A stretch of 64,000 bases of DNA. Origin: an uncultured Planctomycetia bacterium. GTDB lineage: Bacteria > Omnitrophota > Gorgyraeia > 1-14-0-20-64-10. Shown piece by piece: positions 30,602 to 64,000 of the stretch. How positions within the stretch are numbered: the stretch's first letter is position 1; every line of letters begins with the position of its first letter. Under the pieces are notes generated by a model. That model had not been told where the DNA came from and searched no databases. It saw nothing but the letters and a program-made list of their open reading frames with translations. The translations under genes were made by a program, and so were the position numbers. The stretch lies in contig CAZQXN010000002.1 in NCBI GenBank assembly GCA_964597545.1, forward strand, positions 88,234-152,233. Direction: 5' to 3'.

Positions 30602-30603
30602 CC

Positions 30604-32070: not shown

Positions 32071-32102
32071 GGTACCTGGTACCAATTACAGGTACCGATT
32101 TT
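32071..32102 (+). promoter_or_regulatory. Palindromic GGTACC-core motif (ggtacctggtacc ... ggtaccgattt) 15-45 nt upstream of the GH94 start codon. Candidate operator, or a REP-family element.
   Basis: The same 'aaatcggtacc(a/t)ggtacc' unit recurs at 45785, 45927 and 45954 in this window. Confidence 0.35.
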
Positions 32103-32117
32103 AACGTTGGAGGCTTC

Positions 32118-36504: not shown

Positions 36505-39500
36505 GTGAAACGACAACAGAGTGGTTGTGCGCGCCGATTGATTTCCGCACTTACAATCCTTTCCTTTATCTTTACACAAGCTGTTCCGGCGTGGGCACTG
36601 CGGCCGACGCAAGAGGAGGCCTCGCCACGCGCCTCTGCGCTGCGGGAGTCCCAGGAAGACAAGACCCTTCTTCAACTGCGCCAGGCCTTGTTTCAAGTAG
36701 GACGCTTTTTCCGACCGGCTTCAGCCTCCCCCGCGACAGGATTGGAGGAGACTCTAAGGGTCGCAGCCTCCATTCATCCACCCATTACCCTGCGAATCGG
36801 TGCGGATAGAATCTCCACCCTTCATGCCGGCCGCCACACCCGTGTTGAGCGTGGAGATTGCGGTTGTTTTGTCCGGGTGGGAAAGCCGCAGAGCCAGGGG
36901 GGGCTTGATCCCAATGAACTGGTTTTGACCGCGGCTCGGGCTTTGGAGCCCCGCGGCTATCAATCGGCCAGCGCCGGGGTCATTACGCTTGGAGATGATC
37001 CCAGCTTCGACGTTCGCAAGGTACTCGGAGGTGCGGATGAGTTGGAGCCGATCCTTAGCGGACATCCCCTGCCGGATGGCGGCGTGCAATTGGTCCACCT
37101 TCGGTGGCCGACAGAGGGAAAGCCTTCAGAGGATAACCAGCATCCCACCATCATTCGGCCGGATCAGACCAACCCGGCCGAGGTCGAGTTCATCTTTAAT
37201 GGGGACATCACGAACTTTCGGGAGATCGATGATTTTCTGGCGGAGCACGGTATTCACCGGCCCAGCGGCGTGGAGACCGATGCCTGGTCGGCAGCGGCGC
37301 TGATCTGGTACTACTTCCAGCTGCCCTCTGAAGAGCAGATTTCGGGCAGGGCCAAGGCAATCTACATGAGGGATCGGATCGAGGGCAGGGATAAAGAGAA
37401 TTGGGAACAGGCCGCAGAAGAGCTTAAGGCCGAAGGAGTTCACATGCCTTTGCTGGAGGCGGTTCATCTGGCCTATGGTCGCCTGGAAGGGGACTTCGCC
37501 CTGATCGCAGTTTCCGAGAAGGAGCCGGGCAAGGCCATCGGCGCTCTCAAGGGACAGAAGCCCCTTGTGGCGGGGCGGGGTCAAGATGCCGAAACCGGAA
37601 ACTTCCTTGCCTCAGAGGCCTCCACCTTCATTGATTATACCGACCAGAATCAAACCCTTCAGTCGGGAGACATCGTGGTGCTCACGCAGGATGAGGTGAC
37701 CTTTTATCGCCGGAGGGAGGAGGGTCACCCGGGCAGGTTGGCCTTGGAGGTGATCCCCCCCGAGGAGCGCCCCATTCAACCGCTTGATATTGAAGAGGTG
37801 AAGGTGAGCAAGGTGTTCCGGGGCAGGGAATTCTCAACCTTTACCGAGAAGGAGGTTGCTGAGGGAGGGGAAGCCATACGCAGAACCATAGAGCATCAGG
37901 GTCGACTCCCTGTCCTGCGGGACCGGATTGAGGGCCGCGCAGAGCCGATGCCCGGATTGAATCTTACGGATGAAGACTGGCGAAAGGCCCGCGGACTTCT
38001 TCTGGTTGCCATGGGAACGGCCAACTATGCTGCGGAAGCGGCTGCCCCTCACCTGTTCGGCGATCTGGCTCTGGGGGGGGATTCTCCGGAGCCTTTTTCC
38101 GTGCGCGTTGAAACCGGCACCACTCTCTTCGATGTCTTAAGGGCTCAGATTCTCACGCTTGTCCGCCGGTCCGATCCAAACGTGAGGCAGCCAACCGACT
38201 TAGACGGCTGGGTGGCACTGATTAAGCAGCACCAAGGCGGTGCGCTCAAGCCCCTGTTTGCTCAATACCAAGGATTCATCGGAATTGCCGTCAGCCAGTC
38301 CGGCAACACCATGGATACCAACCAGATTGTGATCTTGCTTCAGGCGCTCGGGGTTCGCTTCATTGGGGTGGTGAACAAGCCGATCGATACACCCCTGCCC
38401 CGGTTGACCAAGGAGGATGGAGGGCTCTTTAGAACCAAGGCCGGGGCAGAGATGGGTGTGGCCTCGACAAAGGCCTTTGTCGCGCAAGTGATTGCGCTCA
38501 GACTCATCTCTGTCTATGCGGGTCTGGTCCGGGAGACCCTCCCCCCGGATGAGGCCGCCATGCAATTGGGGGCAATCCACAACCTGCCCGGCATTGTTGA
38601 GAAGTGGCTTGCAGACCCGAGCAAGCAGGAAGCGATCCGGAGGATTGCCCGCTTGCTCGCCAATCAGCAGACCTTGATGTTTCTTTCCCGCGGAGTGCAG
38701 GTTCCCGTCTCCAAGGAGGGGGCGCTGAAGCTGCTTGAGCTGGCTTATCTGTTTACCGTGGGGATGGATGCCGCCTTGATGAAACACGGTTTTATCGCCT
38801 ATTTCCCTGAGTCCCGGGACCCAGCTTTCACTAAGTTTGCTGTGGCGATTTTGACGGACCGGGTCAGCTTAAAGGAAACCTTGACCAATCTGAGTGAGGC
38901 TCGGAGCCGTTATGGACATGTGGTGGGCATCGCCTTTGAGAGCGACCGCGCAGAAGTGCTTCCTCACGTCGATGATCTCATCACCATCCCCGATGTTCCC
39001 GATGAGTTGGCCGCCATCGTAGGCGTTTTGCCTCTTCAAGCTTTGGCTGTTGAAACCACCAAGCGGATCAACAGAACCGGGGAGAATCTTGCTGCTTGGG
39101 CGGAGATGCTCTATTGGAAGCTCCGACAGTTGGAAACCGGAGTCAGCGGGGTTACTCAGCAGGAGCTTTTCAAGACCGCAAAGAGTGTTTTAGAACATTA
39201 CAGCCGGTTTACAGATGACGGACGCCTCGAGCTGCTGCCCACCGCCAAGACGCGTCAGGTTTACTACCTGATCAAGGCCGCGGTTGAGGCGGGAGAGCAG
39301 GGAGAGTATTCACAGATGGAGGCGGGTGTCCGGGATGCAATCCGCGCCCTTCGAGGACAGAGCCTCTCTCTGATCATGTTTTTTGATCATGAACTGGCCC
39401 GTCTTGCAGCCCCTGATCAGGATGAGTCGGATGCCATTCTGACGGCGCAAGAGCGGGCACAGGTGGTCCGTATCATGGGAGATGTTTCCTTCGAGGAGGG

Positions 39501-42500
39501 GAATACCCCCTCCGAAGTGCTCAAGAAGCTTTCGGCAGATCTGGCTGTCTTCTACAGCCAGGCGGTCAGCCGGGGTAGCACCATGAAGGGGCGGTGGAGG
39601 GATTGGCGGTTTAACAAGGGGCTGGGTACATTCCTTGGACGGGATCTGGATAAGCCCCGAGGGCTGGCCAAGGAGGTGACCGTGGATCTGCTTGAAGCGG
39701 ATCTGCGGAGCCAATTGGCCAACCTGGGGGTTCCGGAGGATCAGCTGGATACCACATTCCTCGGTCTTCAGGAGTTGCTGCCGGGGGGACAGATTCATGA
39801 GCAGCCCGGGGTACTGAAGGTTGTTGCTCGGCTTTCAGGTGTCCCTGAGGGAACGCTGCGCCGCCGAGCCATGATGCATGAACAGGCCCACCAGATATTG
39901 CGCCGGGCCGCCCCATCGCAGGATCTGCTTTGGGCCGTGCATCAGGCGGTTGAGGCGGCCGATCTCAGGCGCGTCGAGGAAGATCCCCGCTCCTTCGTCC
40001 CTTTTCAAGCCGCCTTCGAAAAAAGGTTTCGCGGCGGCCACTTTCCCACACGGCAGAAGTTTCTTGAGGAGCTGGTGGCCAAGTACGCCCTTGCCCGACT
40101 GACCGGCACTGCAGAAACGCGCTATGCGCAGGTCGCCCCGGAGATGGAGCAGCTCTTCAACGGCACGAATCTTGATTGGCTGCCTGATGTGAAGGAGGCA
40201 TTGGCGGCTGATCTGGGCATTCCTGCGGAGCGGATGGATCAAGCGGGCATGATGCCCGGGACCTTTGGCCAGCTTTTTGATCCCAGCTTCCGCCCAGAGT
40301 GGGACCAGCGGGCTTCCACTGCCACCCCGGAGGTGATCAAGGCCAGGCAGATGAGCCGGCTGGGGCGAGCACTCGGTTTACAACCGGGGTTGGGGTGGGA
40401 CGCCAGAGAGATGCGGCTCCAGAGATCATTGGCCCGTTACGACCGCGCCCTGCGGACAGCGGCTCCGATTCCAAAGGTCGACCCCGCTGTTCAGGCGGGC
40501 CAGGAGGAGGGGGGGCTCGTTGTTTTCGAGGTGGGCGAGGTCGCCCTGGACAACGAGGTTCGCTACACCCCAGCGAAGCGTTACGCAGATCGACAGTACA
40601 GGCTGGACCGCGCTTTGATGGATATGGTCCGTCCTTGGTTGGAGGCGATTGGGGCGGAGATCAGCGTCAAGTATGGCGATTCTTTGGCCAGGAGCTGGAG
40701 ACACCCGCAGCCTTCCGGCTCTGATCAGAGGCGCTTCTTTAGACTGGAACGGGGAGATGCAGTTGCAACCATCGCTCCGGCCTATCGAGGCCCAATGGCA
40801 GCAACGGCTCATCGGATCTTGCTGGTTGCTGTCAAGGATTCCCCTCAGGAGCCAACGCGCTACTGGCTGCTGCCTTCGGACAGCCGCCTCCAGAACAGAT
40901 TGCAGCGGCTCGCAGGGCATTTCCTGAAGGGCGAGCCCATTCCGGGGCCCCTGCTGTCCGGCTTCCTCTCCCCAGAGCTTCGGTTCGCAACCGATGTTCT
41001 TGATGCCGCAGCGGAGCGTTTCATCCAGCTTCAGTGGGAGCATTCCGAGGAGGTGAGACTCACCTTTGGCGATGCGATCCCCGGGCCCCAAGCGAATCAG
41101 ACCACCCTTTTCATCATAGGACCGCGCCATTCGCACGGCATGCTTGATGCCTTGACGACACCATTGAATCCGGACCATGCGGATCTGAATATCTCAGCGT
41201 CTCGTTCGATCGATAACGTTGCCGCCTTTCCCTTTGATTTCTGCTACGTTGTTGTCGACGCACCCCCGGAGCAGTTGCGGCAGCCGCGCGACACCTTAGA
41301 CGGACAGAGCGTTCTGGGTGCGATTCGAGAACGGGTTGATACCTTGAACCGCTTACGAACCCCTCAAGCACTTCCTGTAAAGCCCGCCACTTCATCTCCG
41401 CCAGCCGTGACTGCCGGCGGCCTGGAGGAGCTGGTTGTAGGGCGGGACTATGCGGATGCTCGGCACGTTGCGGGAATCCAATTTTTGCAGGCTGTCCAGC
41501 TCAGCGGCCGCACGCGGCTTGGCAGCGGGATCTATCTGGATCCCACCCATGGAGGGCAATTTCCGGATGCGGTGATCACGATCGGCGAAGGAACGGTTCT
41601 CTTTGATAATGCCAAGCTCTACGGCCCCATGGTCATTGGCAGAAGTGCCGAGGTCGGCGGGATTCTGGCGGGGACCGCCGAGAGTCCCCTGATTGTCGGC
41701 GCGGGAGCCACGATTCACCGATCGAACGCCGACGTTAAACGAAGTGTTATCGGGCCGGAGGCCGTGGTGGATGGAGCCGACATCGCCGATTCGACTGTGG
41801 TGCCGTTTCTGCGGGGAGTTCGGATTATTGCTCCGGCCGCGGCGGACACCGGCGCTGTTCTGGAGGGAGGCGCAGTTGCCTTCGGAGGGACTGTCGGGAC
41901 CCACGTCAAGCTACGGCGCCATTCGGTGGTAGGCCCCTTTGCCGCATTGGGCAATGCATCAGAGCACAAAGGGGTGGTTTTCATCGGGGCGACCCCGGAT
42001 GCCAATATTGAATTCCCCCATGCCGGTTTTACCGCATCGCTCATGGCGACCGCATTTCTCCCTGAAGGAGATCCGGGTTCCAAGGCGTATTACGACTCTT
42101 ACCGGCAGACCCTTCGGGCGGTGATGTTTGGCGAGTTGGTTGATGCGCGAAAAGCCGACCTCCCATCCCGCTCACCGGTGTCTGGCTCGGGTGCCGCGTG
42201 GCAGTTGGTCTACGCGGTGGATGATTCGGACGTTTCCTTCATGGCGATCCGAGATAACTTCGGGGCTTTTACAGCCGTCAGTGACTACAATTCGTTCACC
42301 GGAGAGAAATCCGGCTCCACCGCCGAAGGGGGAACGGCAACCGGAGTCCACTCGGCTCTGAAGGCCCCAGTTGCGCTGCGCCACCTGATTGCCGTTGGCA
42401 ATCTAAGCCAGGCCACAGGGGATGTGGCCGCCGGGACGCTGACTGCGGGGACGGATCAATTCACCCTTCCGGAATACCGCAGCCTCGAGAGGCCCTTTGC

Positions 42501-45500
42501 CCTCGGCAGTCACTTTGACCAGGATGTGGCTGTTCAGATGGATTACTTCAGGCGGCTTCAAGTGATGGCCGAGGTATTCCTGGAGGGCGCTCAGCGGGCG
42601 CAGGATCCATTTACCTTGGCCGGTTTTACGGCCTCCCTTGAGGCGGTTCGAGGCCAATACCAGGAGCTGGGTCCGCGGTTTCGCAAGGCGCTGGAAGGGG
42701 GCCTGGACCGCACCATTGAAGCGGTTACCGCCAGGATTCAATCTGTCTCCTCTGACGAAGGGGAACGCCTCGGTGAGCGGCTGGATCGCTTCAAGCAGGT
42801 TGTTGAGGGCAGGCCTCAAGTCATTTCCGAGCTAGAGACCATCGGTGAGGCCATCGGCAGCGCTGCCGACGCTGTTGCGCCCGCCACCCAAGCGTCCATT
42901 GCCCAGGCGGTTGTCCAGCAGACCATTAATCCCGGCTCTGTCTGGGTCAATCCGCTGGCTGCCTCCGGTCTGGAGGAGGAGCCGCTGGATAAGGTGATTG
43001 AGCATCTGCTCGCCGTCCCGGCCGGACTCTCCATCCAGAACCCTCAGGCTTATTGGCTTGAGCAGATGGCGGCGGCTCAGGTGAGCGACCTTGATTCGCT
43101 GGAGGTTTTTTTGTCGGATAGGGCAGTTCCGAATGATGCCCTGGATTTCCAACAGCGGCAGCGTTTGCTGGATCTTCTGGACAACTACGACGCCCTCCAC
43201 CAGGTTTTCCGGGTGAACATGGAGATGAGCCGCCTAGAGACGGTCAATCTGATCCTGGCCCAGGCGCAAGCCAACGATTCAACGTTCGCGCAGGAGGTCC
43301 GGGGCGTTCTGGATGTTCCGGATTCCGCGCTGCCCACCGGCGGCGAGCTTGAGGAGATCATCCGTTTGGCCGAGGTGCTGATTGAAGCCGGCGGCAACAG
43401 CGCCCGGGCAGTCCGGGAGATGGCCCGGGCGGCCCAACGGGTTGCCATCAGCGAAACCCCGGTCCATGACGACGGCGGCAACTACGGCAAGTGGCGCTTC
43501 TTGCTGGAGGAGCTCTTTGGCCGGTTTCTGGTTTCATTGGGAGGGGACCTTGCCAACCACCGGACCGTGGAGCCGACACATTTGATTCGGCAGGTCATGG
43601 CCGACCGGCTCCCGCAGAAGGGAACGGAGGCCTGGACCGATGCCGATACCCCTCGATCCCTTCTGATCAAGGAGATCGCCACCGCCTTTGCTTCTTACCG
43701 GCTTCAGCACGGTGAGCCGGATTTTTCAGAGGAAGCGTTCCTGGTGCGGACGCTGGCCAGCTTGATCTCCGCGCACCGGATCTTAAGCAGCGCCTTCCCT
43801 GACATCCTGGAAACCAAAGTCCTCTCCAAGGCAAGCAGCCAGAATGTAGCCGGTGTGGCGGTCGCGCTGCGCTCCGGCTTCCTGGTTCCGCAGACGCAGA
43901 CGGTCAACCCCGAGCAGCTTGCCAGAGCCCTTCTTCTCTGGAACCGTCTGTTGGGGTTGTCCAAGCGGGACGGGATGGTGCTGCCGGCGACCCTGGACGG
44001 GGCACGGCTCTATTTTGTCTACTCGGATCGCCTCGCGGCGGAGGAAGCGTCTCCAGAGGGTGTTGTAGAGTCCATTCGGCTGGGAGATGCCGAGATCGAT
44101 CCAAACGATTACTTCGTCCTTGCGCTGCCCGGCAAGAGCCTGGTCTTGACCGATGGATTGGGCCGGCGGCTGCAGTACGAGGCGGGTGAGCGCGCCTATG
44201 TCGCTCGAGAAGACGGCGAAATAGTCAACCGCTTCGAGGCGTTTCCCGCCCAGATCAGCAAGGCGATCCACCAGCGGCTCAGAACGGTCGATGAGATCTC
44301 CCTGGTTCGCGGGGAGGACCACGCCAGCGAAGAAGACACCCTCTACAAAGATGCCCAGGTCATCGCCTGGGGGGCAGAGTTCCCCTACAGAGCTCTGCCT
44401 CAGGCAAGCCCTGTTTCGCAGCGGCTGTATCAGGCGATTCTGGACGGTGAAACGCAAATGGAGACCATCGTCTTTGGACCCGGCTCTGAGGGTACCTCCA
44501 TCGCACCCCTCTTCTGGCGTCGAGAAACAGTGGAGTTTCTCCGGCAGCTTGCTAAGCGCAGGAGGGATGGCAGGCGGGTACCCAGGGCGGTCTTCATCTT
44601 CAATCCAACCGAGACCAACGACTCCTTTGGCCTGGGGGTTGAAGGGCAGATCCGCAACCACGAGATGATCATGCGCGAGGTCCTCAAGGATGAGACAGTT
44701 CAGTTTGAGGAGCTCTTTCCGGAGATCCTGCTCTTTGACCACACCGATCCCTGGGTGACCGCACCGAACCCGGCGGTGGCCAAGGAGATGGAGCAGATCA
44801 CAGGCAAACCGGTTGCGCCTGAGGATGTGGATTATGCTCGGATTCTCGGCCCTTCAGCGGATGAGGAGGCGGCCGGAGTGATGCACGGCCGCGTCAAGAA
44901 AAACCGCCGGCCGCTCCCTGTTGACGATGCGCTCATCCAACGACTCAGAGATCGGTTCGAGGCGGCCGGAGGAAAAGTCCATCTGGCTCCCTTTGCCGAT
45001 GTTCGGGCAACGGTGGAGTCCAGCCGGGGCAAGATCTCCATTGAGGCACGCGTGCAGGCCATCACCCACCGAGCGGCTCCCATACTCTTTCCAAAGAGCA
45101 GGGACCTTCTGCTTCAGGCCGCTGTCCGGCAAGAGGGCCGGATCTACGAGCAGAAGCACGGAACGCTCCCAGCCCCGCAGCAGCTGGCAGAGTTCCTCAA
45201 CAAGTTCGGGTATGAGACAAATGCCGACGAGGTTGCTGCCATCGCCGCCGGCCAGGAGGAGGCGGATCTGCTTGTCAGTGAAGCCATCGCCTCGGGCCAG
45301 CTTGCCGCCCAAGATTTCTACGCCAAGCCCAGTTCCGCGGGGGGGACCACCTACGTGGTCCCGGTTCCGGCCCGGCAGGAACCAGCCCCCATGGAGCTGT
45401 GGTGGCAGGCCGGCCTTGAGGAGCCCAAGACAGTACCCCCTCACACACGGAAGATCCTCTACGCTGCCACCCTCGCCGCAGCCATAGCTCAGCGCAACGA

Positions 45501-45774: not shown

Positions 45775-45784
45775 CCTTAAAATC

Positions 45785-45797
45785 GGTACCAGGTACC
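45785..45797 (+). repeat. ggtaccaggtacc palindrome in the 46-nt spacer between the two largest genes. It is the first of three closely spaced copies; the others are at 45927 and 45954.
   Basis: 'aaatcggtaccaggtaccaaag' in the intergenic spacer. Confidence 0.8.
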
Positions 45798-45820
45798 AAA
45801 GAAAAAGACACGACGAGATT

Positions 45821-57800: not shown

Positions 57801-60800
57801 CGGCCGTTGTCGAGGAGGACCTGCAGGGGTTGCTGGACGGTTTGCTGGCCGGTTTCACCCCTCTTCTGGGGGCGCATCAGGGTCAAGACGCAAAGGCTTT
57901 TCGGAGGCAAGAGCCGCAGGTTTTTAGCGCGCTTCAGATGCAGTCGGTCATCCCCATGCGCCAAATGGCGCTCTATCAATACGAAGAGGGTAGGCGTATT
58001 CAAGCCTATGTTGAGGCTGCCCGGCGAGGGGATGCCAAAACTCTTGTTGAGCTCTACCGTCAGGCCCATGACGGAGACCGGGCGCTCTGGAGTTTGGGGC
58101 CGGGCGGTGAGTTCGTCTTGACCCCTTGGGGTGAGAGCCAACCCAAAGAGGCCTTCTTCCGGAGCATCCCTGAGATGGATGAGCTTGCGGATCAATTCCG
58201 GGCGCACATGGAAGGCCTTTTTGCAGAGAGGATGGGCACCCCGGTCGCGGAGCTGCGCGTCTTGGCGGCCGGTTTGGGCGGGGCCTTTGCTCTGGGTGTT
58301 CGAGGGACAGATGAGGTACCTGTTGAGGAGGCGGTAGCTGCCGCGAAGAGGTGGTTTGACGAGCGCAAGCTGGAGGTCATTGAGGTCAGGCCCGGCGGGG
58401 GGGCAATGACCGTCGAGATGCCCACTTCACCCCCCACCTCCGCTTCTGCCACCGGCCAGGAGGAGATGTTGGGAGGGGTGCAAGAGCAGATTCGGCAGGC
58501 CAGCCCGCCAGGGGTGACGTTCGATCCCCGGCCTCGCGGCATCCAAGCGAATGGCAGGACGGCTTCTCAACAGGAGTTCAGCCTCCTCAGTTTTGTCTGG
58601 CAGCCATCTTCCGCGGTGGATGGTCTAAGCGCCGCAGAGCAGCTGCGGGCGGCCTGGCGCCAGGAAGGATTTCCTCCGGAGGCGCGGATACAAGGGGGCC
58701 CACATTTCCTCAATGTAGCCCTCCTGGATAAGCTCGATACGATGAAGAGTATTCTAAGGGAAGAGCTTCCAGACAGAGAGGTGGCTATCATTGCGGGGGA
58801 TGTCCCTGTCGTGGACTTCATCCGAGAGGATCAATTGGAGCAGTTTCCGCTTCAAGATTTTGTTCAGGTTTTGGTTCAGGGGCGGGGTGCGCCGGAACCA
58901 GAAGAGTACCCCCATGTTGCCCACGCCGGCAAAGGTGGCGACGGTGTAGATGATCTGCTTCGGGCCCTCACAGAGGCGATGGCAGAGGAGGGTGCGACGT
59001 ACGGAGACCTTCCCGAGTGGTTGTCCGGGTCCCTGCCGGATACGATGAAGCAAAAGCCCATCGACCCCCAGAAACTGGCGCTCTTTCTTGATGTGGACGG
59101 TACGGTGCTGGAACCGAAAGACACCTTTGATCCGGCGCAGGACGGTGTCCAAGGCCAGCATTTTCAAGGCGAGCGGGTGAAGCTGCTGACACAGCTTGCA
59201 GGCAAAGGGGTTGAGACCGCATTCCTCACAGCCAAGAATGCATTTGGCGATGTTGCTGCGGGGGGCGTTCATGACGATAGCCTGCGGCTGGTTGTTCCTC
59301 TGGGCAGTGCCCTGGAGGCGGCCGGTGTCCCTCAAGGGAGGATTCGATACGACGGGCTTTTTGGGCAGCAGCAAGCGCGGTACCAACCCGCCGGAGGGCT
59401 TCTCTGGAGTCGGGCAGAACTGCCGGAAGGCAGGCAACCCTTCACCCTCCGGGAAGCGGCAGCCATTCTTCGCAAACAGCTGGAGGTTGTCCAAGCCAAT
59501 CTTCAATCTGCCGGCTTGCAGGAGAATCCCCTTTCCCAGGTGGAAGGAGAGATCCGGGATGCAGGCAAACAGTTGGGATTGGACCTCTATCCGCAGTGGG
59601 GTGCCATCGATCCGGATGGCAGAGATGCTGCTCACAATCCGCTCTTTCTGGTCATCGAGTGGGACTCTGACCGATCCAACGCCGTTGATGCTGAGAAAGC
59701 TGGCGAGCAATTAAAGACCGATTTAAAAGCAATCCATCCCCTATTACCAGGCAGGGTGGTTCCGAGAGGCAACCTACTCAGCGTGGTTCTGCCATCAAAG
59801 CTGTGGAGTTTAAAGAGCATTGTAGAAACAGGATTTCCAAACAAACGAGTGGTGTTGGTCATTGGGGACCGGCTGAATACAGATTTCTACCATCCAGGGT
59901 TGGGTCACTCATTTCTGGACGCTCCTTACGCCTATGCGCAATTATTGCTGCGCAAGGTCGATCCAGCCTCGATACAACCTTATCCTAACCTTGTGATGAC
60001 CGAACAGGAAACAGAGGCAGGTTTCGATCAGGTCATGCAAGTGTTGCTCGATGCCATCGCCTCAAAGGGGCGCTATGAAACGCTGCCTTTCCTAGGTCCT
60101 GCCTTGAGCGCTCAGGGGGTGACAGGGCCGATCCAGCCGTCAGAGATCCTGATCTTTTCCGATGTGGATGGCACGATTTTGAGCTCCTTGGATACGTTTG
60201 TAGAGGCTGAGGATGGTGTGCAGGAGCAGACATTCCAGGCAGATCGGCTGGATCGAATGGTTCAGCTGGTTGGTCGCGGGGTTGGTTTCCAAACTTTGGG
60301 GGGGAAGGTGCTCCACGACCTCTCGGGGACCCGCGTTCGGACGGATGCCCAGCGGCTCATGGATCCCTTTGTGGCCACCCTATTGGATCGGAAGATCCCC
60401 TTGCGTGAAGTGGCCTACAATGGCGGTTTAGGGGTTCAGCGGGCTCAACCCATTGCCGCCGGTGAGTACAATTTCAGTAGGGGTGGTTTCCCAACGGAGT
60501 TGGAGGAGCTCACCGATCAGCAAGCGATTCAAGTTTTTCACCTGATGCTGGAGGCCATCCAGGCGAACATTCGTCCGGATGCCACCGGCCAAGAGGAGGT
60601 CATCCCGCTTCCTGCGGGGGCTGCCCAAGGGCACCTTGTTATTCTAACTCCCGATATGGTTGAACCTGCGATCGGGGCCTTGTCTATCTTGAAGCCTCCA
60701 CCCGGCGAAACCCTACAACTGGCCGCCATTGTTTCCAATGCACGTCAGGCAGCCGTGGTTACTGTCGGTTTGGAAGAGGCAGGGTTAACCCTTGCCCACC

Positions 60801-61009
60801 CGATGGTGAATCTCCAGGAAACCGGTTGGACCTTGGGAGAAGCGATCGTGGATATCCAAATTCGCGCCTGGGCCGATGCCATAGAGACTTTTGTGGTACA
60901 AACCTTCGGCCAGCTTAAAGGTTTGGGAGCTTACCTTAAGATCCCAGCTGCCTCCATTCGCACCTGGTTCAAGCGAGTCGAACGAGCCGTGCTGGGGATT
61001 CAAGCATAA
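45821..61009 (+). CDS. Giant secreted multidomain protein (5062 aa). It has a signal peptide and the conserved post-signal module. Embedded enzyme-like folds: an ATP-grasp (~55600-56415), a GHMP kinase (~56900-58420) and two HAD-like DxDGT modules (~59070-59330 and ~60140-60400). Recurrent G-L/Q-E-E linkers punctuate it.
   Basis: Single 15-kb frame with ATG start. N-terminus 'IWIRLSAWVVIQALVVTHLSPAFAEPK...LRASQRESKGGLEEL'. Confidence 0.7.
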   Translation: MNGLDNRKIWIRLSAWVVIQALVVTHLSPAFAEPKIGTRYQDQKSVPGTKTLRASQRESKGGLEELREALTEDAPQAPTETSPASGLEETMVDAGGVHGPGFGLLLEADEAALGRYGTEAAKEFAKTGVPVPKLGEGERVGRSSLSFSGRANGIFGRAKIGQFQLNAEERHRRPQAAATRNRLQAGLNFLAGQQRRERAQSELVLELLPLITPLVRLNASAAALRSAERRMDELIDRLDALGEGRGVRAEVARQLQAHLEAWRGGAGENQLMTQAQRVLLAQRVDALILEGQLSAGALQQAERLQEQLEQERYGVYEDQAPEKQKGISFNGVSLIAHLISFARIPTQRLAQRLAQSSAKGRIPLELWVDHDRLLDIPPLSDLRYRGEERVMRLDLTTPHRVNGFDAGGQLYGLALFNQLQAVVQAAEPAGPTPPWLDPVELGAKENLLTSFTCYETWAPQAQQALAQTLKDRHIDSGHHFRWFLTSGAYGTPLEKELAAERLMGRTRLVLEYDQGDPDDPESIISILESETDLEVLSDRIAPLLTGSASPAMAAANAARVGRWAQSTGRLLVGTRAGLASFVEAIAMAGARQLSVKELEAQVRGLVAWLDETRVDLQTPELGAVRDFSAVRGVAMELVNLAGQKTVFDAQLQGAIQRFDARLGEFHASVVKELRSLRTEQAGVIAREKAASGRSRRESRLARDLAVIQKKVDQLDGIMSALKEARAQAPKGEPVQVIIFQRPSARGVRNIAVGATGKDIYFSTDPKLNALLAKGAHNAHFTPFERVYIAVVDVLVEPLPAYANFFMLELKGGRNELVPFVDRKAMLAMFSNSSDSMRQNIRHRFESWWIGMAQRIVARQMQAEDEVERIQREHGVDEADALRWLIWERGWEPLVGQVAAVAERTRDNLLEQVFSLKGKYLIDERDALELAVRDDSSTQNLLGRLRDQAEAADEPFDQFLDTFTRRHRLIQRGRVLAQRALERPQGMFQVHNLTTMGPFETATSNREVLERSFAAGNVVDHYRLDGKVRAILRHWNDRTTAVAETVVRELDYSGYLDEAIEEFRGSPSNPKDRARGLRSIMDSYPEVGDEVIKIVLLLEAQEKRRWEGRLVEAAGTLMESAPYQKEAEDLEAVAGENGWDLQTPEGRFRATFEVLKRSSPLREAAISQAGPIRSAAGDLVEIEAVEERVRFHTESPTQQEDWRLRAARAVLDDFGVEPASGKNPLETVEANPDYQRAYRASLYSWARDEVIETLGLAEAQEDFLYLRNAGSTGMGLLTAREQAIWETGLSHELDNPRFQYNATGPAQGFLQGASMSQIDTGRDQVPSVIGLRKMVAGLDVRATAEAARVYETFNLAGVTRMNDPRIEEILKVVANLLWGAHHYLTEGIHVNIQAVGGDTMPMAHEQAVAENMAADLGAAIRRHAPAGFNWTLERFVREWNLRLDRLIKNGLWFYGGFCILKEPNLLFAAIKATLHPETRNQMLEAFGVPPQLRPEVLADLRRAMRMRQAFESEEEWTEHAHRFLMSRQKVYFEKLLPVAETQGPGTTLSTTLHLPRLPALLKYLQLRGIIAESGRRQDERTLQFRLADWVNKMLAQASIVNRMGLVRKIHETRRVLEELGVPMSEAVIVRGAPYKAGSELEYDAFLKAIFAITDVRGSPGIYILLIDSLLGKDGFFDEFDREGKELVRELLGGDAGFIPPADVRFVGPGSIGDAYDFVPRNIQQKHYGGMDLNTIHKEAVELLGRHGISREQIRAAAQEHGADLTKWSVLNDLDAGDREEVLQALAGWRLILANGERGLFRSYAQAIQGAHVIDLGIPEPELLDLLDEPTRLLGLARQGRGPDAPVALIDATAGSADSALGIRQPIWPKLKELLALGRRVDVEGKPYYTVGYGGSIDETVQQARIEQEAQGTFGEDLEAALLAGDYETADRLFTNFQGWVRNNNKHNEAQDDLSWVIGKRMGGQDARTEPTLPGEKGLRTVRRFDIQARVMSRLAAEDFSLAQANTADLVMAGLFYRLNGRLSREELDARLSRLAQALEDYRTHTGGDPTRKPAIVNVSQDDVDFVAQKVLLTRYEPDREEEQERVLATGQRGAGKAVEQGAERAVQAKRAARVSSSRVAAQRTQQRKAFQAARDGKAGSGLEEVSEGVDQAMEAVSAHGVPLAQITPEAFGRFLGHAQTAVEALVDAVLPPDTSLTAEQAELRRQALEFSHQFFNDGGAIRREAYYERQGGANVGLGPALGELAWQAREDEGLRETVAQVEVLLQTAMFVDAMVEVETPARFYEQLVEIFEMTLDSHRFYALPYLWSERERGLAFSGYSYDEKFALSRRLYGWLYRYLHAQFLERTEFGQMPAEYVDAVLGDATRGVWHIGIGHLENEDLQHWMSFKRFRDLAFWRNEHYMLPFVLTGASPTVFKMESRTNLIFTYGMGDMTVATHLTRAPLLEKHDTNVFQTAYPVHAETGDDTHPLEPQIHDGLTYVSLRRLHEILAGIGTPGAEIDRISGGIVRQFEEEMRRQGYNERQIEAVKASPHGIAVPILVQFSQPAAVHGGYVHDFRRERGPFDRDGGHWNQTTLTNAFTFAERFTWESLAGSGVMRPWQMNILHQEYRDWVEEGLSTEQIADKLLARIVDFMNSTPRLTHEGRLVTRAEMESGGRQMLIALLMQGREFVEKDLELVVHHALGILRGQNAVFKEFLESYATQYLTREAQEMIAEWFSRVRGIPVSLDHYPLTALFDYSRAIMVLGPDGYEVPYLILVLATQEIANFGMQGGLFVLTPEMIRPHYREAYMDALVGAADASIKSENQFLDDAQRREEILREFGRLYEVEELDDIIATPRRNLAGVADSDSHYQMVDAKLMLTDDAEGNLRWYWDEVAERRLFLFDLEDNPNADVAIFDESGSPVTWDAEHPIPMWEKPDPADESTWKPIPYYYKDATGQQHQIQIAYAAKLERNPGQGLMGPYDRMLPLHRKGEGAERLLAAMGQMGAQVMANRASIAAAPTPAPNDLQPQLLVNPTYTPIPTGERISLEAGETGEEWAQWAWERASADLGLSGLEEGDAIAPASLSVVLTHYLVAGVTARYNSSPADLQEALRNPTRAAHMARAAERFLADAELAGHLEEAGVRLTGDQPITATLQDSSYRSRVVQLAMDYLQLEERFTPLAVAPEPLSAEELETLFTDQTVYAGIFSVSPLAEQLELATLQRDFDRFSPDGKAVRVIGVSKEDLNRDATANRFLVADPSGRVREVRSLDSVKIDRAHVLELDHAKELADHREIWELLDALLVPVVNPWESAAKADDKFQTHAILRDAGIATPLAEKAVGIISARKKVEEALTSLVRRHLERQGALQQPGVHPVSLFAQPNIGSRGENLGFGAFEVVVREGEALEIHPEQRGWSDLLEHADRLIKRRDAVLTEERGSATYQGRNVVLKLLALSPDGGRSFQVESGVALVARGPGEFASPAHGAEFVEINAALRDLRFPEGQSLTQGSLSAILGTAAEAARVIGAGQILGVDLLLEFQEDRMVAVVKEVNARPGELWRFNRIEPLDEPATGPSTPLRTGLEEGASAPLTSSLLPQMAAPGVTGIRKTYPLWQWQRMVSDPEGSGFKAMLAEEFHADQIDEEIVRVRTLIDAAMGREVQIRSQEAEPLFDPGAPVALSFAPGRVRYKGGHTDIKGSGEKTINAATHFGVWALTQVLHDPKTAGRVIADNLAPEHDPFAFGLFDEGILPPVGIRQIRPDWLNFAETHGSPYKWEANIKGVPAFIRTDYLDPTGDRRRAMEGWGIRLLLSESTIPTGKGLSTSSALPAVFVWGIQPFLPPEVRLSPQQLNDVDYVAYYGGDRAGTADMTTINLGALDTILVLDSFPEGVAATVTLPPDFRYLIVDSGIERLDAASQEIRTQNFAAFIKSMTGMGPAFATIWLRHLSRSRPREYRQLEELLLTHEAGHPFGLLRELSETGALTDPRYNPMVDGDTADAREEFIRKVMGEIPNGMTVEDIRTAVVEEDLQGLLDGLLAGFTPLLGAHQGQDAKAFRRQEPQVFSALQMQSVIPMRQMALYQYEEGRRIQAYVEAARRGDAKTLVELYRQAHDGDRALWSLGPGGEFVLTPWGESQPKEAFFRSIPEMDELADQFRAHMEGLFAERMGTPVAELRVLAAGLGGAFALGVRGTDEVPVEEAVAAAKRWFDERKLEVIEVRPGGGAMTVEMPTSPPTSASATGQEEMLGGVQEQIRQASPPGVTFDPRPRGIQANGRTASQQEFSLLSFVWQPSSAVDGLSAAEQLRAAWRQEGFPPEARIQGGPHFLNVALLDKLDTMKSILREELPDREVAIIAGDVPVVDFIREDQLEQFPLQDFVQVLVQGRGAPEPEEYPHVAHAGKGGDGVDDLLRALTEAMAEEGATYGDLPEWLSGSLPDTMKQKPIDPQKLALFLDVDGTVLEPKDTFDPAQDGVQGQHFQGERVKLLTQLAGKGVETAFLTAKNAFGDVAAGGVHDDSLRLVVPLGSALEAAGVPQGRIRYDGLFGQQQARYQPAGGLLWSRAELPEGRQPFTLREAAAILRKQLEVVQANLQSAGLQENPLSQVEGEIRDAGKQLGLDLYPQWGAIDPDGRDAAHNPLFLVIEWDSDRSNAVDAEKAGEQLKTDLKAIHPLLPGRVVPRGNLLSVVLPSKLWSLKSIVETGFPNKRVVLVIGDRLNTDFYHPGLGHSFLDAPYAYAQLLLRKVDPASIQPYPNLVMTEQETEAGFDQVMQVLLDAIASKGRYETLPFLGPALSAQGVTGPIQPSEILIFSDVDGTILSSLDTFVEAEDGVQEQTFQADRLDRMVQLVGRGVGFQTLGGKVLHDLSGTRVRTDAQRLMDPFVATLLDRKIPLREVAYNGGLGVQRAQPIAAGEYNFSRGGFPTELEELTDQQAIQVFHLMLEAIQANIRPDATGQEEVIPLPAGAAQGHLVILTPDMVEPAIGALSILKPPPGETLQLAAIVSNARQAAVVTVGLEEAGLTLAHPMVNLQETGWTLGEAIVDIQIRAWADAIETFVVQTFGQLKGLGAYLKIPAASIRTWFKRVERAVLGIQA
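45923..45970 (+). repeat. Two tandem near-palindromic 19-nt units (atcggtaccaggtaccaag / atcggtacctggtaccaag) lying in frame in the post-signal-peptide linker of the 5062-aa gene
   Basis: They encode 'KIGTRYQDQKSVPGTK'. The units differ only at the central base, and each contains two KpnI-like GGTACC sites. Confidence 0.8.
55600..56415 (+). other. ATP-grasp-like domain
   Basis: 'VVNPWESAAKADDKFQTHAILRDAGIATPLAEKAV', 'LFAQPNIGSRGENLGF', 'ILGVDLLLEFQEDRMVAVVKEVNARPG' match the ATP-grasp B/C-subdomain pattern (K-loop, 'vvKP..Gs.G.Gv', 'GvD......g.yvlEvN..PG'). Confidence 0.5.
56900..58420 (+). other. GHMP-kinase-like domain (sugar / small-molecule kinase fold)
   Basis: Motif II 'IPTGKGLSTSSALPAV' (P-x-G-x-G-L-S-S-S-A) at ~57183-57221. 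C-terminal motif 'LRVLAAGLGGAFALGV' at ~58264-58299. Confidence 0.5.
59070..60400 (+). other. Two repeated HAD-like modules (DxDGT nucleophile motif) inside the 5062-aa protein
   Basis: 'LALFLDVDGTVLEPKDTFDPAQDGVQGQHFQGERVKLLTQLAGKGV' and 'ILIFSDVDGTILSSLDTFVEAEDGVQEQTFQADRLDRMVQLVGRGV' are internal paralogs ~1.1 kb apart. Confidence 0.45.
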
Positions 61010-61017
61010 AGCATAAT

Positions 61018-61039
61018 GGGGACGGTCCATTTTGGGACA
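61018..61039 (+). repeat. 22-nt exact repeat 'ggggacggtccattttgggaca', identical to the left arm of the terminator hairpin at 30534-30555. Here it has no right arm. It lies between the two giant genes and overlaps the start of the third giant gene.
   Basis: Direct comparison of the two loci. Confidence 0.85.
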
Positions 61040-64000
61040 CTCTAACATTCGCACAATACGTTGGATTCGCCTCAGCGCCTGGATTACTTTCCAGGCGCTG
61101 ATTGTTACCGGCCTTTCTTCTGCCTTTGCCGAACCAAAAGCCAGTATCGGGTACAAGCTTGTACCCGATACTGAAGCGCTGCGAGCGCCCCAGCGCCAAG
61201 AGGGCGGGCTTGAGGAGATCCAAACATCCCTGTCCGCCGGCCAGGAGGAGATGCCTACCCGGTCTGAAGGGGCGTTTGATGTTGTGGATGGCCCCACCAC
61301 GTTGGTGAAGAATTTGCCCTCAGATACTACCCCTGAACGGCCCTACCGGGGAGATGTGGCGAGTTCAGTCCTAGGATTGGCCGACAAGATTCTGCCGAGG
61401 CGGGTTGATACCCAGATTGCCTTTGTGGCGGTGTACAACGATGCGGGGATCGCTGATTCCTTTGTGTTCGACATCGCAGATCCCATCGCCAGTGTCCGCG
61501 ACTTTGCCGAGGCCAAGGGGATTGCGCTTGATCAGCTTATGGTTGCCATGGATGTGAGCTCTTCTGCGGTCAACACCGAATGGCTCCCCGATGCGCTGGT
61601 GGAGATCGGAATCCCCCGAGACAACATCATCGCTTTCCCCCAGATCCAGCAGGCGATCAACGTGGCCCTCAACAACAATCCCCGCCGGAAGCTGCATGAG
61701 CGCTCCCCGTGGTTTACCAAGTCGTTCGACATCTTGATTGGGAGTGTGGGGGCAACCGAAGTGTCCGGATGGATCAATGCCATTGCGCCCCTGCCCGGCG
61801 TGCACGCCCGCCTTTTCTTTGCACCATCTGCCGCCCGAAAGGGTCCTCGTCAAGCCCGAGATATGGACTCCCTTTACAGCATGCGGTTGACGAATCAGAG
61901 GAATGTTGCCGGCGAGCGAAGGACGACGTTCGAACTGGCGGATCTGGTTGACATGGGTGACCCCCACAAGATGTACGCCTCCACCCTGGTGACCGGCTAC
62001 ATGAATATTCCGGGAATAGAGTATGACACCATGGGGGTGACCACTTACACCAAGGTGTTTCAGCAGGGGTGCGATCCGGTCATCTTGGTGGATCGTTTCA
62101 ACTACGCGATCTCAAGGCAGGATGCCCGGGCGCAAGCCATCGCTGTCACTGAGGGTTTCGAGGGGCGGTATCCAGACGTTTACGAGTGGCTGCTGCATCA
62201 TGGGGGATCGATTCCGCCTCGTCCGGTCCAGCACGACGTCGTTAAAGCGGCTTCAGCTGCAGCGATCCCGACTCAGTGGGACAAATCCGGATGGCCGGAG
62301 GAGTTTTTGGGGCTGAGTCTGGTTTCCTCCCGGGGGTATGACCTTCAAGGCAATCCTGTAAAGACGCCGTTTCCCATCCGGGGCGACGGACACCGGGATA
62401 CCCAGGCCGCTGCCATTGCCTCCGGCTGGCTGCGCGGAATAGCAATCGGCGGCCAAGTGGATGCTGAGCAAGCCAAGCAGGCGGCCGACCGGCTTGCGCG
62501 GGATGCCATGGGCGAGAGGATAGCGTTGAACCCTGCCCCCCACCCAGTGACAGTGGGGGCCTTTGAGGGGGCCAGAGACGGTTCTGCTTCCTGGAAATAT
62601 GGGATGGTGCTGGACGCCGGCCAGGAGGAGCGCTCAGAGCTTCAGCAGAGGGTGGCCGAGGTGCCGAAAGGGAGCCTGTTTCTGCCCCTGGAGCTTGGCG
62701 GCACGACCCTAAGGGCTGCCCTGGCGGATGCGGGGACGAATGAGGTGCTTACATCGTTGGAGCGCGAATGGAAGTTTCTTCCCGGAAGCAAGCCGAGCGG
62801 CTCAGAGAATATAGCCCCCGTGAATGAACAGATCCGCGCTCTCGTTGAGGAGCTCACCCGTTTGGCGGGAATCGACATTCAGGATGTGAGCCGCTTGCCG
62901 ATCAGCGCCACAGGGGAGTTTAACGAAGGGACGACCGGGGGCACTTTTGAACGGCGGGCCGGGTATGTCCGGCTTCAGTTTTATTTGCCCTATACCAGGC
63001 TCAATATGCTGGCACACATTGCGGGCACTCTGGGTGTCGCAGAGGATCGGTTCAGTCTGTACAGCGATGTAAAAACCGCCCTCGTTGCTGAGGAGCGTTT
63101 CGGAGGGCACGGTTTAGGGCCGGGCAGGGCAGGGTATCTGACGGTCAGCACCGGCGTCGATTTGGCCCTGATGAGCACAGACGGCGAGCCCATTCCCATA
63201 GAGCTGGAGCAGTACCCTGTGAGCGGCGGTAAGAATGTCGGACACTTCGCCTCAGGAGCCCACTTGGCCGGCTTGGCAAGGGAGGAGATTGGACGCACCG
63301 GGGATAGCGTCATCATGGAGTTGGTGGGTGATGACCCCTCCCAGATCGACACTCAGGTCTTGGGTCAAGCATTTCGAGCAGGAAGCGCGCTTGCCATTCG
63401 GTTGTACCAGCAGGCGGCTCAAGTCATAGGAGAGGCCATTGTTCAGGCGGTCCAGAAAGAGGAAGACCACCTCGCAAGGGAAGGGGGCCTTCGAATCGTT
63501 GCCGGCGGCGGGGTCATAGAAGGGGTTAACAGTTTTATGCCGCTGAGCGGTTCTGAGCGGCGCACCATGGTCACAATGCTTCAGGATGCCGTGGATGGCG
63601 CTCGCTATTCTGCCGGCATGGAAAGAGAGATTGAGATCGCGCTTTCTCGGTTGAAGCCCAACCACCGCGGTTTGCTTGGAGCTGTGGCGCTGGCCAGCGC
63701 CGGCCTGGAGGAGACGCCCGCCGCTTCTCTGGCTCATAAGATTACCCAGAATCTCAGCGGCGACATCGCCTCTCTGCTGCCGGCCCTGCAGATTCAAAGC
63801 ATGGATTTTATGGAAAGCGGAATTCCCGGGTGGGAGCGGCTGGTTTATACCCTTGCCGACGGATCCCACTGGAGGGGCGGCATCGTGCATGAGGATGTCC
63901 CGCGCGATCAGATTCATAAGACCGCCGCTGTCAGCCCCGGCAGCATGGTAAGGGGGGCTGCTACCCGGCTGAAGGCAGGCGCCACGGTCCTCAATACCGC
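61032..64000 (+). CDS. Third giant-family gene (3'-partial, >980 aa, runs off the window). It has a signal peptide and the conserved post-signal module, and a ROK/BadF-type ASKHA kinase-like domain at ~62680-63530.
   Basis: The six-frame track omits it because it has no stop. The frame was verified by translating several stretches ('WIRLSAWITFQALIVTGLSSAFAEPK', 'LQQRVAEVPKGSLFLPLELGGTTLRAALADAG', 'LTVSTGVDLALM', 'IVAGGGVIEG'). Probable TTG start at 61032. Recurrent 'GGLEEI', 'AGQEE' and 'SAGLEET' motifs. Confidence 0.6.
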   Translation, partial: MGHSNIRTIRWIRLSAWITFQALIVTGLSSAFAEPKASIGYKLVPDTEALRAPQRQEGGLEEIQTSLSAGQEEMPTRSEGAFDVVDGPTTLVKNLPSDTTPERPYRGDVASSVLGLADKILPRRVDTQIAFVAVYNDAGIADSFVFDIADPIASVRDFAEAKGIALDQLMVAMDVSSSAVNTEWLPDALVEIGIPRDNIIAFPQIQQAINVALNNNPRRKLHERSPWFTKSFDILIGSVGATEVSGWINAIAPLPGVHARLFFAPSAARKGPRQARDMDSLYSMRLTNQRNVAGERRTTFELADLVDMGDPHKMYASTLVTGYMNIPGIEYDTMGVTTYTKVFQQGCDPVILVDRFNYAISRQDARAQAIAVTEGFEGRYPDVYEWLLHHGGSIPPRPVQHDVVKAASAAAIPTQWDKSGWPEEFLGLSLVSSRGYDLQGNPVKTPFPIRGDGHRDTQAAAIASGWLRGIAIGGQVDAEQAKQAADRLARDAMGERIALNPAPHPVTVGAFEGARDGSASWKYGMVLDAGQEERSELQQRVAEVPKGSLFLPLELGGTTLRAALADAGTNEVLTSLEREWKFLPGSKPSGSENIAPVNEQIRALVEELTRLAGIDIQDVSRLPISATGEFNEGTTGGTFERRAGYVRLQFYLPYTRLNMLAHIAGTLGVAEDRFSLYSDVKTALVAEERFGGHGLGPGRAGYLTVSTGVDLALMSTDGEPIPIELEQYPVSGGKNVGHFASGAHLAGLAREEIGRTGDSVIMELVGDDPSQIDTQVLGQAFRAGSALAIRLYQQAAQVIGEAIVQAVQKEEDHLAREGGLRIVAGGGVIEGVNSFMPLSGSERRTMVTMLQDAVDGARYSAGMEREIEIALSRLKPNHRGLLGAVALASAGLEETPAASLAHKITQNLSGDIASLLPALQIQSMDFMESGIPGWERLVYTLADGSHWRGGIVHEDVPRDQIHKTAAVSPGSMVRGAATRLKAGATVLNT
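61143..61172 (+). repeat. Perfect 30-bp palindrome agtatcgggtacaagcttgtacccgatact lying in frame in the post-signal linker of the third giant gene. Its arms (cgggtaca/tgtacccg) match the REP arms flanking the RAYT gene.
   Basis: The sequence is self-complementary. It encodes 'SIGYKLVPDT'. It occupies the same protein position as the GGTACC units in the 5062-aa gene. Confidence 0.85.

Follow-up and report, generated by a model that had tools for sequence, protein, structure and literature searches.

What are the five very large open reading frames (ORFs) that flank an amino-sugar locus in an uncultured bacterium, and does each encode one working chain or many? The ORFs lie in a stretch of 64,000 nucleotides (nt) from contig CAZQXN010000002.1 (GenBank assembly GCA_964597545.1, positions 88,234 to 152,233 of the forward strand), which was analysed whole and is called the window below. 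We denote them N1, N2, A, B and C and refer to them collectively as the giants. Judged by sequence, N2, A, B, C and probably N1 (whose N-terminus lies beyond the window) appear to be Sec-exported modular multi-enzyme proteins, and many of their modules appear to be homologs of cytoplasmic amino-sugar and nucleotide-sugar enzymes with intact catalytic residues. In outline, a signal-type leader is followed by a chain of enzyme-sized modules, and complete members close with a terminal module of ∼ 120–250 amino acids (aa). The most informative feature of the locus is a set of short G-L/Q-E-E elements, which follow the pattern [A/T/S/G]-G-[L/M/Q]-E-E and stand at the junctions between modules. We give an even chance to the proposal that the giants are exported polyproteins that are cut at these junctions. 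The five ORFs are:

2–4141, + strand: N1, 1377+ aa, with junctions at nt 920, 2021 and 3590 and faint CofD-like (aa 57–159) and ROK-type signals.
4229–7537, + strand: N2, 1102 aa, with a signal peptide of its own, unlike the family leader, and junctions at nt 4433 (aa 69, the first) and nt 6917 (internal).
36505–45774, + strand: giant A, 3089 aa, with a GTG start and a GGGAGG Shine–Dalgarno sequence 8 nt upstream.
45821–61009, + strand: giant B, 5062 aa; the identical protein stands at NCBI as P0004, on a 156-kb contig.
61032–64000, + strand: giant C, > 989 aa, cut by the window end, with a probable TTG start and a type-2 leader.

Related proteins and loci are given below by working numbers (P and L, respectively). 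At a GC content of 60%, the frames of A and B run for 9.3 and 15.2 kb without a stop, and that of C is open from nt 61017 to the window end. The frame of N1 (8–4141 as an ORF) is open back to position 2, so N1 is truncated at the window start; N1 and C are thus cut by the window, and the ORFs of 1102, 3089 and 5062 aa are complete. The original prediction had described three consecutive giant genes, the third open to the window end, and had named frameshifts or assembly chimeras as what would undo it. An in-frame TGA inside a module of the relative L001 does illustrate that single-site errors or mutations happen. Giant homologs of comparable size are however present in independent JGI, ENA, Logan and NCBI assemblies, which argues that the ORFs are not such artefacts, and the junctions are in frame and kept at the peptide level. 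The three genes therefore stand, and the probability that they are mis-assembled or frameshift-fused ordinary genes is negligible.

The contigs that carry relatives of giant A are titled Candidatus Omnitrophota, plus two labelled uncultured Planctomycetia. The 595-aa neighbour gene upstream of giant A has 116 homologs, whose organism-level names are all Omnitrophica or Omnitrophota; one weak match is labelled 'bacterium' only. By these sequence relationships, we assign the window to an uncultured Omnitrophota bacterium.

Giants A, B and C were predicted to carry Sec signals, and each indeed begins with a positive n-region, a hydrophobic core and an AxA site. None of the giants has a convincing internal hydrophobic (transmembrane) helix. 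A profile of the family leader (FFALLTILSxTFTQAxPAWA/LRP; here and below a slash marks a cleavage position) recovered 31 proteins among 1.84 billion representatives, nearly all of 1.3–4.9 thousand amino acids (kaa), and we take the giants to be a rare, lineage-specific Omnitrophota family. The first [AST]GLEE is found 8–20 residues past ALRP in most members, and later in A, B and C. Internal junctions are usually present too, and the last one lies 120–250 residues before the C-terminus. The terminal module that follows it is conserved in 14 members (...NLFGI.L...W..F....A.QA, then the stop), with a divergent copy in B. Leaders come in several types: B and C share a second type, and N2 and the giant of L009 have other signal peptides; junctions are kept in all of them. 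The 'conserved post-signal module' noted previously does exist and corresponds to the first copy of the junction motif.

G[LQ]EE occurs 23 times on the + strand of the window, always within the five large ORFs, compared with 0.87 occurrences expected from composition (maximum 5 in 2000 shuffles), and it is absent from the 29 kb of ordinary genes between the large ORFs. When five loci are pooled, the strict pattern [ATSG]G[LMQ]EE is found 31 times in 26.5 kaa of giants and 0 times in the 21.5 kaa encoded by 48 neighbouring genes (P about 1e-11). Position -1, which is outside the search pattern, is A, T, S or G in 59 of 66 internal sites of the wider family. The flanks contain almost no information and are only slightly enriched in small or polar residues. 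The elements are thus real, although what had been described as long low-complexity linkers is a five-residue junction motif with these slightly enriched flanks. Some superficially similar peptides were rejected as junctions: GELEE (A, aa 2280), LGLQEL (A, aa 1087) and VGLEEA (B, aa 4983), the last of which lies inside the terminal module of B, where its GLEE (nt 60767) is probably not a junction.

Could the motif act at the level of RNA? It is encoded as GGN-(C/T)TG/CAG/ATG-GAG-GAG, and the Shine–Dalgarno-like GGAGGAG within it might pause ribosomes or promote internal initiation between modules. The +1 residues L, M and Q are chemically unlike, yet all have NNG codons; TTG is over-used, and GGAGG is found in 21 of 34 motifs compared with 15.8 ± 2.9 expected (P = 0.05). 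The remaining 13 motifs nevertheless lack GGAGG, the junction codons vary, with Glu codon use that matches the background, and an in-frame start codon is absent after most motifs. An RNA element also gives no rationale for the small residue at -1, and distant relatives retain the peptide pattern as AGAEE, AGVEE and AGTEE. We consider action at the level of RNA very unlikely as the main explanation and any such role of the motif at most secondary. The codon variation, the background Glu codons and the scarcity of downstream in-frame starts led us to reject a Shine–Dalgarno artefact as the main origin of GLEE and GQEE.

If the motif marks module boundaries, regions of homology between giants should begin and end at it. 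The parts of A and B are:

36505–36750, + strand: leader of A, a Sec-type signal of the family-specific kind (LISALTILSFIFTQAVPAWA/LRP) followed by a spacer and then by ATGLEE at nt 36739 (aa 79), the first clear junction.
36739–40497, + strand: module A2 (1253 aa), GlmS-like, with a class-II glutamine amidotransferase (GATase-II) domain, SIS domains (SQSGNT), the tail LAKEVTVD and a C-terminal extension, up to the junction AGQEE (nt 40498).
40498–41418, + strand: module A3 (307 aa), homologous to the module after the same junction in P0002, P0003, P0030 and L004; no family match.
41419–42966, + strand: module A4 (516 aa), left-handed beta-helix (LbH) acetyltransferase-like, which begins exactly at the junction GGLEE.
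42967–45249, + strand: module A5 (761 aa), with a faint CofD signal alone.
45250–45771, + strand: terminal segments of A, a 54-aa piece between the junctions at nt 45250 and 45412 and then a 120-aa C-terminal module ending ...YAIVTAT.
45821–46087, + strand: leader of B, type 2 (IRLSAWVVIQALVVTHLSPAFA/EP), and the pair of junctions closest to it, GGLEE (nt 46004) and SGLEE (nt 46076).
46076–54970, + strand: core modules of B (2054 and 911 aa), without family match; two giants from other lineages that lack a leader, P0005 and P0006, are collinear with them.
54971–56485, + strand: module B5 (505 aa), RimK-type ATP-grasp-like, with the E-x-N motif EVNARPG.
56486–58453, + strand: module B6 (656 aa), GHMP kinase-like with intact signature motifs, orthologous to the TGA-interrupted module of L001.
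58454–60586, + strand: modules B7 and B8 (353 and 358 aa), tandem paralogs, each with HAD-like DVDGT and GD..D motifs.
60587–61006, + strand: C-terminal module of B (140 aa), ending ...VLGIQA, the divergent copy of the family terminal module.

Homology does tend to break at the motif. Internal BLAST endpoints among related giants fall within 10 aa of a motif in 25 of 97 cases, compared with 3.7 expected (maximum 12 in 5000 randomisations). The distance between the motif and the start of the LbH module is 0–2 residues in A, P0002 (aa 2255) and L006 (aa 2557). The native GlmS C-terminus (...LAKSVTVE) is followed directly by AGAEE, AGLEE or TGLEE in P0003, P0029 and P0036/L004. Module A5 is 51% identical to a part of P0047 (A 2157–2918 versus P0047 3880–4645); both ends lie 1–3 aa from junctions in both proteins, and the neighbouring modules of the two proteins differ. 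The paralogs B7 and B8 are 30% identical (E 7e-38) and each unit begins at a junction (GQEE at nt 58454; a degenerate GLQE at nt 59513). P0001, a homolog of A, has a WD40 beta-propeller (aa 1310–1600) directly after the junction that follows its GlmS-like module. There is no counterpart in A, and by comparison of the two sequences this would be a clear case of module insertion at a junction.

A further comparison is with P0005 (4159 aa), a protein of a different lineage. Its collinearity with B extends over ∼ 3 kaa and takes in the ATP-grasp-like region. P0005 has neither a leader nor junction motifs, and shows gaps exactly at the B junctions at aa 2140 (SGLEE, nt 52238) and aa 3051 (nt 54971, the start of B5). 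This suggests that the motif was inserted into the linkers of a pre-existing multi-domain protein, in a lineage that also gained the leader. P0005 (locus L003) was rejected as a family member, as it lacks leader and motifs and has a different locus context, and was used as an outgroup; its precomputed Pfam annotation includes a GHMP domain. P0006 is likewise collinear with B and lacks a signal-type leader and junction motifs; the members of its cluster are labelled Latescibacterota, Gemmatimonadota or Myxococcota in the records of metagenome-assembled genomes. P0005 and P0006 are presumably cytoplasmic single-chain multi-enzymes.

The in-frame TGA of L001 mentioned above (L001:26852–26854) stands in the middle of the GHMP-like module (PGNFKFF-stop-VESGV, compared with PPDFRYLIVDSGI in B). 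Because of this stop, two 'giants' are called in one frame of L001 where the window has a single ORF. It may reflect recoding, a nonsense mutation of recent date or an error in sequencing.

What do the modules encode? A2 matches Escherichia coli GlmS (2j6h) with a phmmer E of 1.7e-32, and the alignment spans the glutaminase domain, the SIS domains and the catalytic tail. A2 thus has the parts of a GlmS: a class-II GATase, two SIS domains, a catalytic tail and the catalytic residues. It also carries large insertions and the C-terminal extension of ∼ 270 aa, and the catalytic tail (GRDLDKPRGLAKEVTVD, compared with GTDVDQPRNLAKSVTVE in E. coli GlmS) follows an insertion of ∼ 190 residues. The other identities are fainter. 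B6 matches the GHMP kinase AbGHMP (9ulx) with E 2.5e-5, and by inspection keeps the PGRV/GGHTD, PTGKGLSTSSA and catalytic-Asp motifs; its score against Pfam GHMP_kinases_N is 17.7 bits versus a cut-off of 22.3. B5 matches five RimK-type NCBIfam ATP-grasp families (best E 6.8e-5), and the LbH module A4 matches CysE, EpsC and GlmU models (E 0.0025–0.03). Giant C has junctions at nt 61206, 61239, 62619 and 63702 and contains a 460-aa module without family match and a 361-aa ROK/ASKHA-like module, which matches the ROK protein encoded in the window itself (pairwise E 4e-6). The HAD assignment of B7 and B8 rests on the DxDGT motif and E 0.12 only. Pfam searches with the whole giants and with junction-cut segments gave nothing above threshold except SIS, and phmmer against PDB sequences gave no match for B5, B8 and C3. 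Of the domain list that had been drawn up from the letters, the GlmS-like GATase-II with SIS is well founded, and GHMP, ATP-grasp, LbH, ROK and HAD are weak but consistent, below curated cut-offs.

The original prediction saw in substitutions such as WPTEG and SQSGNT a sign of binding or decoy modules, i.e. catalytically dead domains derived from enzyme folds that would bind sugars or sugar nucleotides outside the cell. Such a role would suit the strong divergence of every module except SIS, which all score below curated family thresholds, the lack of a Cys-rich zinc motif in the ROK-like module and the cofactor supply, which is not expected outside the cytoplasm. The substitutions themselves, A75P, H77E and E351N in GlmS numbering, are however at non-catalytic positions. 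By alignment and translation, A2 keeps all 15 canonical catalytic and substrate-binding residues: Cys1, Arg26, Arg73, Trp74, Asn98, Gly99, Asp123, Ser347, Gln348, Ser349, Thr352, Lys485, Glu488, His504 and Lys603. Signature residues also persist in the GHMP module (the motifs and the catalytic Asp), the HAD-like units (DxDGT) and the ATP-grasp module (E-x-N). Given these conserved residues the decoy proposal is not supported and is, in our view, very unlikely: the modules are strongly diverged yet do not look inactivated.

How, then, would a chain of apparently competent enzymes be put to use? In the polyprotein proposal, the chain would cross the membrane unfolded via Sec and would be cut at the junctions, [ATSG]-G/(L/M/Q)-E-E, probably after the Gly. 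The likely cutter would be a C39-type (double-glycine) cysteine peptidase, acting in cis or, for the giants of the window, in trans. Individual enzymes would thereby be released, which would make the giants bacterial polyproteins. The GlmS-like module would in addition expose its Cys by autoprocessing of the N-terminal nucleophile (Ntn) type at GD/C. An Ntn glutaminase needs a free N-terminal Cys, and as encoded the nucleophile of A2 is internal (GD/CGCF, residue 119 of A, nt 36859), so processing would be required to expose it; in relatives the Cys follows a candidate peptidase module (G/CCG, GD/CGT).

At least 17 family members carry this candidate as their first module. It spans ∼ 300 aa after the first junction, has an invariant CxxC and a nearly invariant G-x-H, and is followed by the start of the Ntn-type glutaminase (G/CCG or GD/CG). 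By the structural model, the first module of most family members has the fold of a C39-type, papain-like peptidase, including the catalytic Cys and His. Enzymes of the C39 type cleave behind a pair of small residues, in keeping with [ATSG]-G.

Several points weigh against this scheme. Cleavage is deduced from sequence, as are export, the exact bond that would be cut, the protease that would cut it and the place where the enzymes work. The signal peptides were called by eye and by hydropathy, without a dedicated predictor. At the sequence level the C39 matches fall short of significance (Pfam E 0.2; PDB profile E 0.25–2), and the CxxC region of the peptidase model is of low confidence. A search of all six frames of the 64-kb window with a family hidden Markov model found no C39-like module; in A and P0001 the leader runs straight into GlmS. 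For the window giants, action in trans by a peptidase encoded elsewhere must therefore be assumed. Canonical double-glycine sites have Gly at P2, Gly, Ala or Ser at P1 and conserved hydrophobic residues upstream, whereas here the order is small residue then Gly and the upstream positions are not conserved. No junction motifs were found in the distant low-GC relative locus L010, which has the Tiki-like gene (below) and leader-type proteins. Finally, enzymes that depend on Gln, ATP and NAD have no obvious extracellular substrates, and their place of action is a puzzle.

The main rival is that the giants are exported and remain uncut, each as a single large scaffold in the periplasm or at the surface (an 'extracellular metabolon' or coat), with the junction serving as a hinge or spacer, a helix cap, a solubility or anti-aggregation element or a site for a chaperone or export factor. 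This would explain an inter-modular motif coupled to the leader as well as cleavage does, and fits the absence of a protease module from the window. A motif of five residues, strict for a small residue at -1 and flanked by uninformative sequence, nevertheless resembles an enzyme recognition site more than a hinge. In most members one copy stands 8–20 residues past the signal-peptidase site, where no hinge is needed, and the C39-fold peptidase directly follows it. The free Cys that the Ntn glutaminase needs would also require some processing. We regard an uncleaved scaffold as possible, if rather unlikely, and retain the polyprotein proposal as the working one.

Polyproteins cut at junctions would differ from known C39 systems such as PCAT, ComA and LagD in several respects. 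The peptidase here is a module of the substrate and not of an ATP-binding cassette (ABC) exporter; no ABC exporter partner was found nearby, where the only ABC system is an importer that depends on a solute-binding protein. The leader is a hydrophobic Sec-type signal, and the putative site, [ATSG]-G followed by (L/M/Q)-E-E, recurs internally and lacks the upstream consensus of double-glycine leaders.

A second candidate processing or maturation factor would be the product of the gene directly upstream of giant A:

34688–36475, + strand: Tiki/TraB/EreA-fold protein (595 aa) with a signal peptide and conserved HIQDAH...E and GGFH motifs.

The alpha/beta fold and the conserved His/Glu motifs place it in the Tiki/TraB/EreA/ChaN superfamily. 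In seven loci (the window, L001, L004, L008, L009, L011 and L012) the first giant is preceded by this gene, and the gene product has a signal peptide, which NagA, NagB, ROK and GH94 do not. We consider the protein a candidate auxiliary hydrolase. In L009 only, a 148-aa protein that consists largely of DVAVLKQ heptad repeats is encoded between the Tiki-like gene and the giant (L009:11747–12193). In L010 (269–11864), which belongs to a distant Omnitrophota genome with 38% GC, the Tiki-like gene is followed by genes for signal-peptide proteins of 589, 1115 and > 1238 aa. The 1115-aa protein has a UDP-glucose pyrophosphorylase domain and the 589-aa protein ends ...LIDILIQA, which may be compared with ...VLGIQA of B. 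Exported nucleotide-sugar enzymes may thus be a theme wider than the junction system.

N1 and N2 lie at the start of the window, away from A, B and C. Both have G-L/Q-E-E elements, as had been noted, and N2 has a signal peptide; a signal peptide of N1 was not found (N1 is cut by the window edge), and the ROK domain claimed for N1 reaches E 0.18 only. N1 (3590–4138) and N2 (6992–7534) have in common a C-terminal module of ∼ 183 aa that ends ...LIVAA and differs from the terminal modules of A and B. The two copies are 74% identical, which suggests that terminal modules were recently duplicated or exchanged. The next four genes after N2 (7527–12599) encode signal-peptide proteins with CBM30, CBM11 and CBM9 domains.

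The giants had been described as interleaved with a nag/GH94/ABC-importer locus, and they do flank one:

24719–34568, + strand: companion locus, encoding a solute-binding protein–permease fusion, a permease with CBM30, NagA, a 332-aa hypothetical protein, ROK and a GH94 phosphorylase.

The enzymes of this locus lack signal peptides. The same gene order is found upstream of the giants in L001, L008 and L009, and its ROK–GH94 end alone in L004; L011 and L012 have ORFs of matching size at this position (a match in size only). The ABC importer (24719–28266) is of an unusual build, with a 751-aa fusion of solute-binding protein and permease and a second permease into which a CBM30-like domain is inserted. 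This arrangement is kept in L001, where the permease–CBM30 is seen and the locus is cut upstream, and in L008 and L009 (without a recorded CBM30 match). An IS200/Y1 transposase gene lies within the sugar locus at different positions in the window (18709–19281) and in L001 (2322–2957), which suggests that the element is active in the lineage.

Between N2 and the importer, nt 16661–18622 encode a cytoplasmic DUF4954 LbH protein without a signal peptide, with weak similarity (E 0.008) to A4, the LbH module of giant A. A DUF4954 match also occurs in the giant of L008. The DUF4954 protein may be the source or a paralog of the LbH modules of the giants. On the minus strand (19306–23976) there are four consecutive ORFs of 781, 344, 290 and 233 aa with essentially no family matches, at least three of which have signal-peptide-like N-termini; a gene for a cytoplasmic HAD hydrolase follows.

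Does the system resemble one that is already known? MARTX toxins are secreted proteins of 3–5 kaa with several enzyme modules, which an internal cysteine protease releases by cutting at short sites. The window giants differ in that A, B and C gave no Pfam matches to RTX or glycine-rich repeats or to the cysteine protease domain activated by inositol hexakisphosphate. In viral polyproteins, one long ORF is cut at short recurrent sites by an encoded cysteine protease to yield enzymes. Here the giants are Sec-targeted and lie on a cellular chromosome with an amino-sugar locus and IS200, and there are no viral genes.

The closest relatives are from the same phylum, which is known for giant genes (PMC10066038; bioRxiv 10.1101/2023.11.21.568195), and the description of our giants as exported proteins built from normally cytoplasmic sugar-phosphate and nucleotide-sugar enzyme folds in such a lineage holds. 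That the arrangement and domain repertoire are unlike any described was overstated, as multi-enzyme Omnitrophota giants are already the subject of two preprints. Nielsen & Lui (2026; bioRxiv 10.64898/2026.06.07.730766) report a class of 'multi-enzyme metabolic cluster' giants, whose domains include sugar-metabolism, ROK and HAD types, as well as a topology class with a signal peptide only. West-Roberts et al. (2023; bioRxiv 10.1101/2023.11.21.568195) found giant genes adjoining carbohydrate importers and proposed proteolysis of the giants, with the cleavage points stated to be unknown. The giants of these preprints and the family studied here have in common the phylum, the many enzyme domains that tile one chain (sugar-metabolism, ROK and HAD among them), N-terminal C39 domains beside signal peptides, neighbouring carbohydrate importers and a suggested proteolysis.

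They differ in size and topology. The catalogued proteins have at least 10 or 30 kaa and mostly many transmembrane helices and SecA-like domains, whereas the window giants have 1–5 kaa and no internal transmembrane helix. Compared with class 1 of Nielsen & Lui, the window giants have the Omnitrophota host and many enzyme domains without a dominant repeat (GlmS-like, LbH, ATP-grasp, GHMP, two HAD-like and ROK-like), but with 1102–5062 aa the complete ORFs fall short of the 10,000 aa at which that class begins. They lack the numerous transmembrane regions and the divergent SecA DEAD helicase that define archaeovorins (West-Roberts et al., 2023), and no Pfam match to SecA was found in A, B or C at E ≤ 1. 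A junction or cleavage motif, the family leader and the terminal module are reported in neither preprint. The literature that was searchable contains no description of the junction motif, of a link between it and the family-specific leader and terminal module, of its insertion when compared with leaderless homologs, or of the conserved Tiki-like neighbour. What is known is therefore the class (Omnitrophota multi-enzyme giants with N-terminal C39 domains and suggested proteolysis); what appears to be new is the junction motif and its associated features.

Where might the enzymes work? Their dependence on glutamine, ATP and sugar phosphates might point to the interior of a host or prey cell. We speculate that self-processing secreted polyproteins, with a Sec leader, a C39-type peptidase and recurrent [ATSG]-G/LEE sites, would deliver active amino-sugar and nucleotide-sugar enzymes (GlmS-like, kinases, phosphatases, acetyltransferase and ligase) into such a cell and redirect its central metabolism to amino sugars, which would then be taken up and used through the ABC importer, GH94, NagA and NagB ('metabolic farming'). 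This would fit the lifestyle proposed for the phylum and the invariant pairing of the giants with an amino-sugar import and catabolic locus; even so, we rate it as unlikely. If true, it would represent a metabolic-farming effector system, together with the first defined cleavage code for Omnitrophota giants.

Giant proteins are characteristic of the Omnitrophota, and how they function is an open question, for which the junction code provides a concrete, testable handle. It would allow giant ORFs to be split computationally into units fit for structure prediction, it predicts specific neo-termini, and it can be scanned for across far larger giants. An apparently competent GlmS and kinases behind a secretion signal would also bear on the predatory or host-dependent lifestyle that has been proposed for the phylum.

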